From NCBI RefSeq assembly GCF_053078305.1, contig NZ_CP166879.1: a stretch of DNA of 64,000 nucleotides. One strand, 5' to 3'. Made by a program: the position numbers. Numbering within the stretch: position 1 is the stretch's first letter; each line of letters begins with the position of its first letter. Shown here piece by piece: positions 12,001 to 15,000 of this stretch.

Positions 12001-15000
12001 CAGCCCAGATGAAAGATATAAAGCTCATCGCCCCTGCCGGCACGGTGTGCTTCAGCCCAGACACGCAGCAACAGATCCGCATCCCCTTTGGGATCAAAGA
12101 CAATGGTGACATCTCCCCGACGAATATCCTGTGTGACCAGCAACTCCGCCAGCCGGGTTTTCCCGACACGGGTGGTGCCATAGACAATGGTGTGCCCCAC
12201 ACGTTCACCCAGTGCCAGCGTCACATCCTGCTCATCCGGCTCAATACCATGCAGGGCAGGATTTCCTCCCACCGGCGGCAGGGGACGGACGGGATTCAGC
12301 GGCGAGTCACGACGAAGAAGCTGCCCAATCCAGGGAAGACTGCGCTCCGTTTTCATTTCAAGCCAGCGCGCTGTCCGGTACAGACTGCCCGGCTGAAGAT
12401 AGTGCGCAACCTCCGGTCGCAGCGTGTCCTGAAGGCGCTGGGTGTGCTTCTGTGTCCAGCGGAAGCCGCGTCCCAGAAACAGCCGCTGACGGCTGACCGG
12501 AATTTGCCGGGAACTCATCACATAACGGGGCAGCCGGCGCAGATTGCGACGGTAACGGATGATCTTCATCCCCTGCCGGAAACGGACCACTGCCAGAACG
12601 CCAAAGCCGGCGGCTGTGACATAGCTGACCGAAGGCGCGAGCGCCACCGCCCAGGGAGCTGTCACACAGACACCGGCCGCCGTTGCTGCCACCACGGCGG
12701 TATTCAGTTCCACAGCCGGACGCAGCAGAGCCTCAATCACATAACGGTTACTCATGACCGGGTACCTCTCTGTAAAAGACGCCGCCACCATGAGCGCGGC
12801 AACGCTTTCTCCGGTGACGCTGACAGTGCCTCCAGCCTGCGCTGTAACACTATCACCTCCCGCCATGCGTCTGCCGCATTCAGCAGTAATGCCTTATACA
12901 CCAGTGGCCCGTCATGTCCGCCGGCATGCACATCATCCACTGTCAACTGCGCCTCTGTTCTGAAACGGTCCACTTTCCAGCAGGCCAGGTCTTCGCGGGA
13001 AACACACTGCCGCCGGGTCTGCAGACGAAGATACACATCATGCCGGGACAACGGTTCTGCCAGGTTGTGAATTTCCCGACAGGCAGACCGGAACGCCTGG
13101 TCTGTGTGATAAATACTCTGGGCCACATTGTGAAGCTGTGTGCGCCCCTCCCCCTGTAGGTGAAACAGAAAGCGGGCCAGACAGCTGCGGTGATTACCGT
13201 CAGCACTGACATACCAGTGAATGCCATCCGTGCTGACAAAACCCATCCCGGCATGCTGTTGCTCTGCCTGCGTGTAATATCCCGGATTCTTTTCGAGTAA
13301 CGGGATATTGATGTCCATGCGTTTGCCACGCTCCAGCAGCTCCAGCCAGCTCATTCCGGCATACTGTGGATGGTCAGTCCCCACAATGCGGTACACATTG
13401 ATACTGCCCTGTCCCGTCCAGTAGTGTTCCGTAATAAAATCCGACATTGCCGCAAACTCTGCGGTATCCCATGCAACCAGTTGTTCATGTGCCCAGGCCG
13501 GAGCATTCGCCTGTATCCGCTCTGTAAATGCCCCCTTCATTCAGCTCTTCTCTCCTGCACTTTTGAGATACCGATACCGTCAGGCCACGGCATAACAGCC
13601 GGGCCCCCCCTGCCTTCCCCGGATACGGCTGCAGAACCACAACCACGAAACAGAATGACTGACGAGACACCTTCCATAAACAAAGCGCCCAGAAACAGAA
13701 CCACCGCCAGCATTTTCAGTTCACGAATATCTTCAGCAACAGCCTCCCCGAAAGAAATCGCTGTTCGCGGACATTCCTGCTCATCGACATACATACCTGA
13801 GACGGATATGACGGAGGAACATTTTTGTACCATCACATGCCCTTCAGGCGCATCACGCCAGCGGGATGACTCCGTCGCATAACGCTGTGTCATGCCTGCC
13901 TCACCACCACTCAGATTGTTCCAGACATACAGCATTACCAGACATCCTGCCAGCATTGACGGCCAGACAATCAGAAGCCGGAGCAGCAGCATAACAAACC
14001 GGTACAGTGTCATAATCATGATCTTCCTTTATTACTCAGTAAGGTGCCATTCAGCAGTTGCAACAGACGTTGTCCACTGATCAGCTCAATATCCGGCCAC
14101 AGTGTCAGCCGTGCCCGGCTGATGTTCCCCGTACGCCCCGTATGGATAAAAAAGCCCCTGCATCCCTTCCGGCGCAGCAGTTCGCCAAAAGCATCAATAT
14201 GTGCCGGACGAATGGTTCTTCCGTAACGTTTAGCCTGTATCAGCCAGCGTTCACCGTTAATCACCACCTGACCATCAAGACCACCATCGCCGCTGTATGA
14301 GGGGTTACGGATAACCGGCATCCCCTGTTGCTCAAAAGCCAGCAGCAACAGTTCCTCAAACACATACGGACTGATTTTGCGCAGATATTTCAGCCGCCGG
14401 GCATCACCCTGCAATTCGTTCAGCCGCTTCATTACCCGTGAGGCCGTGGCACGATAACGCTGATGCCGGCGTGTTCTCACACACGCTTTTTTTCGCCGGC
14501 TGCGCCACAGTGCCGGCCCCAGGACAACAGCCAGCAGGCTGAGAACCAGGCAGGCTGTCAGTACCGGAGAAGCAGAGAGCGCAGCAGAAGTGGCAGACAG
14601 CGGCATCATGGTGCAGGTACCTGTGACAGGCCGTTGTCCGTTATCAGCACCGGGTAATGACTTATCTGTAACCTGCGGGCCAGTACAGAACCGGATGCCG
14701 GAACCATCACCACCCCCGGTGCCAGCTCACGCAGTACGCGCAGACTGCTCTCATCCGCCACATTCACTACCATTCCCGCCGCCTTCCGCTCCCTGAGTAC
14801 TGCTGCATTCATCTGCAGCCATGTGCGGGAATGGGCATCATCGCCCACAAGAAAAAGTGCACCGATGCCCGGTAACTGAAGCCGGCGCGCCACAACCTCT
14901 CCGGGTGACATTTCAGGCGTACTGACCGGTAACATTGCCGCCTCTCCCTGCGGAAAAGAGGGTGATAGCACAACTGAAGCGGGAACCGGTGGCTGCCGGT

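Follow-up and report, generated by a model that had tools for sequence, protein, structure and literature searches.

A putative membrane-anchored Mrr_cat protein, a hypervariable putative membrane protein and a DGNHR-family protein encoded beside traD in an Escherichia coli integrative and conjugative element

Analysis of a 64,000-nucleotide stretch of the Escherichia coli chromosome (contig NZ_CP166879.1, assembly GCF_053078305.1; the whole stretch is referred to as the window) revealed three overlapping genes in the type IV secretion system (T4SS) operon of an integrative and conjugative element (ICE) of the SPI-7/PFGI-1/ICEclc class. The three genes were located in a variable slot just upstream of traD, which encodes the coupling protein of the T4SS. 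Gene 1 encodes a nuclease-domain protein predicted to be anchored in the membrane, gene 2 a small and highly divergent membrane protein, and gene 3 a protein with the signature DGNHR, whose relatives were found among conjugation genes of many bacteria. We tentatively propose, as the most likely role of the trio, a membrane-localised DNA conflict or exclusion function at the T4SS.

A variable accessory slot between DUF2859 and traD

The open reading frames (ORFs) of the three genes were found on the minus strand at 14609-14016, 14019-13537 and 13540-12752, with products of 197, 160 and 262 amino acids, respectively. The junction sequences were read directly and showed ATGA start/stop overlaps at four successive junctions (DUF2859/gene 1, gene 1/gene 2, gene 2/gene 3 and gene 3/traD), the start of traD being the Met of MSNRYV at 12755. 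The three translationally coupled genes described in the initial annotation were therefore confirmed. The features of the slot and its two borders were as follows.

14016..14609, minus strand: gene 1, 197-residue Mrr_cat (PD-(D/E)xK) protein, predicted to be membrane-anchored (Pfam PF04471)
14508..14564, minus strand: predicted single transmembrane helix of gene 1, residues 16-34 (Kyte-Doolittle 19-residue mean 2.52)
14229..14288, minus strand: catalytic core motif of gene 1, GDGGLDG...IQAKRY (D108, D112, Q125, K127), read from the sequence
13537..14019, minus strand: gene 2, 160-residue membrane protein with two predicted helices (hydropathy)
12752..13540, minus strand: gene 3, 262-residue DGNHR protein with a putative, divergent ParB/Srx-like domain at the N-terminus, an alpha/beta domain at the C-terminus and a basic-aromatic tail
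13100..13540, minus strand: putative ParB/Srx-like domain of gene 3, residues 1-147
13187..13201, minus strand: DGNHR signature of gene 3, residues 114-118, at the hairpin-to-helix position of the ParB/Srx GxHR motif
12755..12829, minus strand: basic, Trp-rich C-terminal tail of gene 3 (…PRSWWRRLLQRGTRS), modelled with low confidence
14606..15124, minus strand: PFL_4695/DUF2859 thioredoxin-like gene, the upstream border of the slot (NCBIfam TIGR03765, 4.2e-39)
10638..12755, minus strand: traD, T4SS coupling protein, whose start overlaps the stop of gene 3 (NCBIfam TIGR03754, E=0, 1092 bits)

Comparison with related elements identified the junction between DUF2859 and traD as a variable accessory slot, similar to the slot after VirB4 in ICEclc. 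The complete triplet was present at four loci (L006, L010, L077 and L078), and the reading frames and ATGA couplings were intact in the triplets of E. coli, Salmonella and Pectobacterium. Mrr_cat and a homolog of the 262-residue protein were found without the middle gene in Serratia and S. Oranienburg (L004 and L008), and Mrr_cat was found alone, with DGNHR absent, in another enterobacterial ICE (L075 4001-4615; CP017450). The DGNHR gene lay upstream of TraD without Mrr at two loci (L037 and L071) and elsewhere in the ICE at others. In Edwardsiella ictaluri (L011 6795-6962), Mrr_cat was reduced to a 55-residue remnant and the DGNHR gene was kept. A fixed three-component system was rejected on finding these doublets, singletons and relocated copies, and the "triplet" of the initial annotation did not hold as a functional unit, since its relatives carry Mrr_cat alone, Mrr_cat with gene 3, or gene 3 alone.

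In ICEclc, orf71178 (DUF2859) is followed directly by orf68987 (TraD) with no gene between them (Table 1 of PMC10018362). In the same study, the effect of deletion was tested for 22 of the 24 transfer-region genes, and the slot after VirB4 held non-essential RadC and DsbA genes (PMC10018362). In PFGI-1, PFL_4695 is likewise followed by the TraD coupling protein PFL_4696 (PMC2647930). The three genes had no counterpart in the 24-gene transfer region of ICEclc; a DGNHR copy elsewhere in ICEclc was not searched for. Because they are absent from this region and from the PFGI-1 slot, the three genes are not core T4SS components, in line with the initial annotation, which could not place them in the core T4SS families.

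The same conclusion tells strongly against a reading in which the three proteins are structural or essential parts of the T4SS of mating-pair formation type G (MPF_G). The operon location, the translational coupling to traD and the presence of two membrane proteins speak for it, yet it is hardly tenable and largely refuted by distribution, since the genes are missing from the deletion-defined set of ICEclc and from PFGI-1, some related elements have only one or two of the three, and the middle gene is confined to a few enterobacterial lineages.

Products of the three genes and the DGNHR family

The Mrr_cat domain named in the initial annotation was recovered in gene 1 by hidden Markov model (HMM) search. 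Residues 76-186 matched the whole of Pfam PF04471 (model positions 1-115 of 115) with an i-E of 3.1e-17. The conserved elements were the FEEL helix, both aspartates of GDGGLDG and the lysine of QAK, and residues E85/E86, D108, D112 and Q125-x-K127 were at least 97% conserved among 116 homologs. Judged by these residues, gene 1 appears to be catalytically intact. The hydrophobic segment at residues 16-34 was followed by a strongly basic flank rich in Arg and Lys (SRRKKACVRTRRHQRYR). Hydropathy and the positive-inside rule applied to this flank predict an N-out protein tethered to the inner membrane, with the nuclease domain in the cytoplasm. The membrane-anchored Mrr_cat protein of the initial annotation was thus supported by the hydrophobic segment, the full-length domain match and the conserved catalytic residues. 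The Mrr_N winged-helix DNA-recognition domain was not found in gene 1 with Pfam, and the N-terminal 75 residues consisted of the hydrophobic helix and a basic linker. No solved structure in the PDB matched gene 1 by sequence. The homologs formed at least 679 clusters, and the best 120 listed were all enterobacterial where the source was named; RefSeq relatives were annotated as "restriction endonuclease". PADLOC-DB v2 gave only weak, domain-level matches to gene 1 (PDC-S02 at 1.2e-7 and others above 1e-3). In some E. coli records, DUF2859 and Mrr_cat were joined in a single ORF (P0035, 340 residues; P0054, 276 residues), presumably through a frameshift or the loss of the stop at the ATGA junction. 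If such joined ORFs are real, a periplasmic thioredoxin-like domain and the nuclease would be located on one chain.

Gene 2 contained two hydrophobic segments, at about residues 9-27 and 106-124, as expected for the small membrane protein reported initially. No family match was found in NCBIfam, PADLOC or PHROG, and the only Pfam match was TraP at E 0.04. Just three clusters were found among 5.8 billion proteins, all from E. coli. Gene 2 was homologous to a 170-residue Salmonella gene in the same place (phmmer 1e-33), and a 158-residue gene of Pectobacterium was similar to it in layout; it was absent altogether from the Serratia and S. Oranienburg ICEs. The amino-acid identity of gene 2 between ICE lineages was 44-45%, compared with 64-94% for the neighbouring genes, and it was the fastest-evolving and most divergent gene of the operon.

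The ratio of nonsynonymous to synonymous substitution rates (dN/dS) was calculated with a reference set of two divergent E. coli ICE lineages and one Salmonella lineage. The values were 0.14-0.24 for the Mrr gene, 0.39-0.48 for the middle gene and 0.22-0.40 for the 262-residue gene. All three genes are under purifying selection, and since dN/dS was below 0.5 in each of them, they are real genes and not chance ORFs. The nucleotide identity of gene 3 was 94-98% and 83-93% to two divergent E. coli ICE lineages (L077 and L078, respectively), making it the most conserved block of the region. The identity of gene 2 was 49-61%, with a sharp step exactly where it borders gene 3, and that of the 5' part of the Mrr gene, which encodes the membrane anchor, fell to 34-69% and was hypervariable between ICE lineages. 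The middle gene and the Mrr anchor form one hypervariable block. Additionally, the dS of the 262-residue gene (0.13-0.36) was far under that of its neighbours (0.6-1.5). The sharp mosaic boundary between gene 2 and gene 3 suggests recent recombination or allelic replacement.

Gene 3 contained neither a transmembrane helix nor a signal peptide, so that the plural "membrane-tethered nuclease domains" of the initial annotation applied to the Mrr_cat protein and not to the 262-residue protein. No match was found in NCBIfam, PADLOC, PHROG or the PDB sequence profiles, nor in Pfam at E<=10; ParBc (PF02195), the family to which the initial annotation had pointed, also gave no match at that threshold. 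Alignment with hhalign to the large ParB protein of the ICE itself showed no similarity (probability 0.3%). Among 38-55 diverse relatives, G115 and R118 were invariant and H117 was at least 90% conserved. The secondary structure comprised strands at residues 99-103 and 109-111 followed by a helix at 116-129, with DGNHR at the junction. The predicted local distance difference test score of the AlphaFold2 model reached 90 over the whole protein and 96 over its N-terminal domain, and a ParB/Srx alpha+beta core fold was recognised in the model by fold comparison, at modest Z. The ParB/Srx assignment of gene 3 is supported by this fold comparison. Compared with the ParB/Srx superfamily (ParB-N CTPase/nuclease, Srx, SbnI, SerK, KorB and PadC), gene 3 appeared to share the fold and the GxxR/xHR arginine, and matched no sequence profile. 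A nuclease function is not established for gene 3, because CTPases, kinases and reductases are also built on the ParB/Srx fold. The fold and the signature of the "ParB/Srx-like DGNHR nuclease motif" were thus retained, whereas the word nuclease was not, no ParB nuclease sequence model matching the protein.

The last 25 residues carried a net charge of at least +3 in 44 of 55 gene 3 relatives, and Trp was present in 44 of the 55. This tail is a candidate membrane-targeting helix or T4SS signal. In the fusion proteins P0176 (521 residues) and P0181 (423 residues) and at loci L053 and L034, the DGNHR domain and basic tail were followed directly by a hydrophobic helix and a TraF domain. The thioredoxin-like TraF domain of these fusions was PF13728 (5e-56), and the helix resembled the TraF signal peptide. 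Because DGNHR-TraF fusions occurred in several independent relatives, the C-terminus of gene 3 would be positioned at the cytoplasmic face of the membrane, beside an assembly factor of the F-type T4SS.

The family of gene 3 was large. An exhaustive profile search gave 512 representatives at E<=1e-3, 292 of them below 1e-10; these represent clusters at 50% identity, so that the family comprises at least 512 clusters, whereas a word-indexed search gave merely 33. Members were found in Proteobacteria, Desulfobacterota, Nitrospirae, Campylobacterota, Deferribacterota, Bacteroidota and Aquificota. Nearly all Foldseek matches of gene 3 in AFDB50 were family members named "uncharacterized protein", which shows the breadth of the family and not its function. 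Genomic contexts were surveyed with one genome per species, giving 61 loci with a gene 3 relative, which were annotated with profiles built from the reference ICE together with NCBIfam and Pfam. In this survey, the position between Mrr_cat and TraD was restricted to Enterobacterales. The homolog was immediately before TraD, without Mrr, in Thiothrix; between VirB10 and the TIGR03751 lipoprotein in Brenneria and Pectobacterium; before or after VirB4 at six loci (L016, L017, L021, L033, L035 and L051); and between PFL_4669 and ssb/topoisomerase in Pasteurellaceae, Neisseria and betaproteobacteria. It directly followed the topoisomerase gene in P. aeruginosa PA7 (L036 6959-7711) and in plasmid pUM505 (L080 5959-6711). 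Other homologs were located inside F-type clusters, adjoining TraH, TraG, TraU, TraN or TraF, and that of Mucispirillum adjoined TrbI/VirB10. The DGNHR family is embedded at varying positions in MPF_G, F-type and VirB/Trb-type operons or beside ssb/topoisomerase genes. In PAPI-1/pKLC102-like elements, the DGNHR homolog lay downstream of ssb, and of crpP in pUM505, and was followed by the genes of a large hypothetical protein and a DEAD-box helicase.

No match to gene 3 was found in phages by tblastn, and 9 of its 15 plasmid matches were conjugative. On Phaeobacter plasmids of type MPF_T, including pP78_f of Phaeobacter inhibens (L081 4531-5684), a thermonuclease (SNase) gene overlapped a distant DGNHR-like gene by 4 bp, which is a second, independent pairing of DGNHR with a nuclease, of another fold. 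This pair was located near ssb and parB. Nuclease genes were rejected as regular neighbours of DGNHR, since a Pfam scan of 55 unlabelled neighbours gave only one SNase, that of the Phaeobacter case, which had been included deliberately. The nuclease pairing of the DGNHR family is occasional, not general.

Possible roles at the transfer apparatus

Elements of the SPI-7/PAPI-1/ICEclc class spread virulence, resistance and catabolic genes, and their transfer apparatus is partly understood. To our knowledge, no exclusion or fertility-inhibition system is known in this class, and no exclusion phenotype of SPI-7/PFGI-1-class ICEs was found reported in the literature searched. In the literature on ICEclc, SPI-7, PAPI-1 and Osa, no paper was found that named or tested any of the three genes. 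The roles in exclusion, defence or DNA processing suggested in the initial annotation are plausible for the trio. The proposed role in DNA conflict or exclusion has two precedents, SNIPE and Osa.

SNIPE (PD-lambda-1) is an N-out, transmembrane-anchored cytoplasmic nuclease that cuts phage DNA during injection and becomes toxic when its transmembrane segment is removed (bioRxiv 10.1101/2025.11.03.685801). Gene 1 is similar to it in its predicted short periplasmic N-terminus, single transmembrane helix and cytoplasmic nuclease, and in its hypervariable anchor. The two differ in fold (GIY-YIG in SNIPE, PD-(D/E)xK in gene 1), and gene 1 is much smaller (197 residues) and located in a conjugation operon, whereas SNIPE is a stand-alone defence gene. 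The DUF4041 and GIY-YIG domains of SNIPE were not found in gene 1, for which Pfam gave only Mrr_cat, and the relation is one of analogy only, not homology. It is plausible by the same analogy that tethering avoids self-cleavage by gene 1. With the type IV enzymes of the Mrr family, gene 1 shares the full-length catalytic HMM, the FE-helix, and the conserved aspartates of GDGG(L/I)DG and lysine of QxK. Unlike true Mrr enzymes, it appears to have a variable periplasmic stub and one transmembrane helix in place of the winged-helix recognition domain, and it is encoded inside a T4SS operon.

Gene 2 resembles TraS of F and Eex of SXT/R391 as a small protein, probably of the inner membrane, that is the most divergent of its transfer operon. 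In the gene order of F, traS/traT are immediately upstream of traD-proximal genes, a position comparable to that of gene 2. Neither by sequence nor by profile (Pfam, NCBIfam and PHROG) was gene 2 found to resemble a known exclusion protein, and, as a further difference, it is absent from many sister ICEs. Osa of pSa/R388 is a ParB/Srx ATPase/DNase aimed at coupling proteins, and fertility inhibitors have been described as "rapidly-moving accessory genes" (PMC5696584, PMC5512222). Gene 3 is similar to Osa in its predicted ParB/Srx-type fold, its location on a conjugative element and its accessory, mobile distribution. Gene 3 also lies directly beside the coupling-protein gene and is translationally coupled to it.

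[quoted passage not shown] There they may act on DNA that passes through the membrane at or close to the transfer apparatus. Unwanted DNA, for example from rival elements entering the cell, from retro-transfer or from a phage specific for the pilus, would be cut by the tethered nuclease, and the tether would hold this enzyme off the chromosome. The variable membrane protein encoded by gene 2 may supply specificity or exclusion. The ParB/Srx-like product of gene 3 would bind nucleoside triphosphate (NTP) and work at the T4SS ATPases, and could resemble Osa in blocking substrate access to the coupling protein. It is not necessary that all three genes belong to a single machine. If the proposal is true, a tethered nuclease at a DNA-translocating machine would extend the entry-point cutting of SNIPE from phage injection to conjugation. 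A more ambitious version, which we consider unlikely, is that DGNHR represents a previously unrecognised, conjugation-specific family of nucleotide-dependent ParB/Srx proteins, which docks at T4SSs and controls the DNA that passes the coupling protein, and that together with Mrr and the middle protein it forms the first exclusion or anti-invasion module of SPI-7-type ICEs. Docking would occur through the basic-aromatic tail or, in some lineages, through the TraF fusion, at T4SSs of several MPF types.

Several observations weigh against the conflict or exclusion role. Conservation of the DGNHR family is strong even between phyla (35-45% identity, with many invariant residues), and the gene is the most conserved segment of the region; a housekeeping function in transfer or establishment accounts for this better than a weapon in an arms race does. 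Most DGNHR lineages have no nuclease neighbour, and Mrr_cat and DGNHR are each found without the other, so that they need not share a mechanism. PADLOC-DB v2 matched no described defence system, with nothing for genes 2 and 3 and, for the Mrr domain, just the weak PDC-S02 match (1e-7). Both the topology and the association with the membrane are predicted.

In the strongest rival reading, gene 3 is a conserved factor that assists conjugative transfer or establishment, and genes 1 and 2 act separately, sharing the insertion hot spot by coincidence. We regard this reading as only slightly less likely than the conflict or exclusion role. In one variant, gene 3 could be an NTP-binding ParB/Srx switch that works with the cytoplasmic T4SS ATPases or the relaxosome; in another, it could be supplied to the recipient, or synthesised there at an early stage, together with single-stranded DNA-binding protein and topoisomerase. 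The wide and ancient spread of the family (512 clusters, seven phyla named), its high conservation as the locally most conserved block and its repeated positions beside TraD (Enterobacterales and Thiothrix) or VirB4 are all in keeping with such a factor. The PFL_4669-ssb-topoisomerase module in Pasteurellaceae, Neisseria, betaproteobacterial and P. aeruginosa elements points in the same direction, as do the TraF fusion and the basic tail, which is similar to both T4SS substrate signals and membrane-targeting helices. There is also a precedent in HerB/YfjB, a ParB-like leading-region protein (PMC13370423). However, the 24-gene transfer region of ICEclc lacks the gene and transfers well, so that not every system needs the factor. 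The gene varies in position and is patchily distributed, as is typical of accessory genes, and the ICEclc slot after VirB4, which DGNHR uses in some ICEs, holds genes that are non-essential.

Ordinary anti-phage cargo that benefits the host and has no link with conjugation, in which a type IV-restriction-like Mrr nuclease works with a ParB-like partner, comparable to GmrSD or the DndB-type ParB domains, is improbable. Mrr_cat is typical of modification-dependent restriction enzymes, weak PADLOC matches to the nuclease domains of PDC-S02, LmuA and ZorD were obtained, and the RefSeq name of gene 1 is "restriction endonuclease". Against this, the genes are set by ATGA overlaps within the T4SS operon and not in the cargo region of the ICE, gene 1 lacks the Mrr_N domain, no PADLOC system model fits genes 2 or 3, and Mrr_cat and DGNHR occur apart. 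DGNHR also tracks conjugation genes, with no phage matches and no defence-island context.

Even less probable is that the genes are decaying or non-functional remnants. An insertion sequence of the IS66 family in traD of this ICE copy, the 55-residue Mrr remnant of Edwardsiella and the high divergence of the middle gene could be taken in this sense, but the dN/dS values below 0.5 for all three genes, the intact frames and ATGA couplings in E. coli, Salmonella and Pectobacterium, and the conserved catalytic and signature residues argue against it.

Gene 1 was already known as an annotated restriction endonuclease, whereas neither its membrane tether nor its setting in the operon seems to have been described. 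For the DGNHR family, Pfam, NCBIfam, PADLOC and PHROGs contain no model, and no mention of it was found in the literature. The trio falls within known kinds, namely the PD-(D/E)xK and ParB/Srx superfamilies and the accessory conflict genes of conjugative elements, and is no new category. As it follows conjugation genes across at least seven phyla, the DGNHR family is a concrete, testable candidate for a new T4SS-associated function. Even if the genes are neutral cargo, the annotation of "restriction endonuclease" and "hypothetical protein" inside a transfer operon is corrected by the distribution data. A conjugation-wide family and a possible exclusion module would be of interest to specialists in ICEs and T4SSs.

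The element and its neighbouring genes

The class of the ICE was apparent from its transfer operon on the minus strand, in which PilL, TIGR03759, PFL_4695/DUF2859 and TraD were matched by NCBIfam. A 2-kb region was 99.5% identical to the annotated ICE of E. coli FHI_NMBU_10 (NZ_CP046539), a copy that is free of the IS66 insertion described below. Sequence from the region was present in 104 of 5426 complete E. coli genomes, nearly always on the chromosome, and a megablast search of the region against the plasmid collection gave no match. The neighbouring features outside the slot were as follows.

17848-17249, minus strand: PilL (NCBIfam)
16502-15780, minus strand: TIGR03759 gene (NCBIfam)
8657-9007, plus strand: tnpB of the IS66-family element
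9038-10651, plus strand: tnpC of the IS66-family element

The IS66-family element, at 8149-10681, interrupted traD 23 bp ahead of its stop. Its target duplications were located at 8141-8148 and 10682-10689 (8-bp repeat GAACATGC). In TraD, 14 residues derived from the IS took the place of the final 7, and the insertion parted traD from the TIGR03747 gene (8125-7364), its usual overlapping partner. Transfer by this copy of the ICE is probably impaired through the insertion. A gene similar to those of the Rpn family of recombination-promoting nucleases/transposases was found at 18034-19002 (minus strand), with the ssb/topoisomerase module on one side and pilL on the other; the reference ICE has the same arrangement. 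Additionally, the 205-kb E. coli plasmid pUTME-7-1 (L079, NZ_CP169030) carried a fragment of the ICE backbone consisting of TIGR03747, traD and a truncated DGNHR gene. In this plasmid, the DGNHR gene was cut by the Tn3-like transposon TnEc1, and the Mrr and middle genes were gone.

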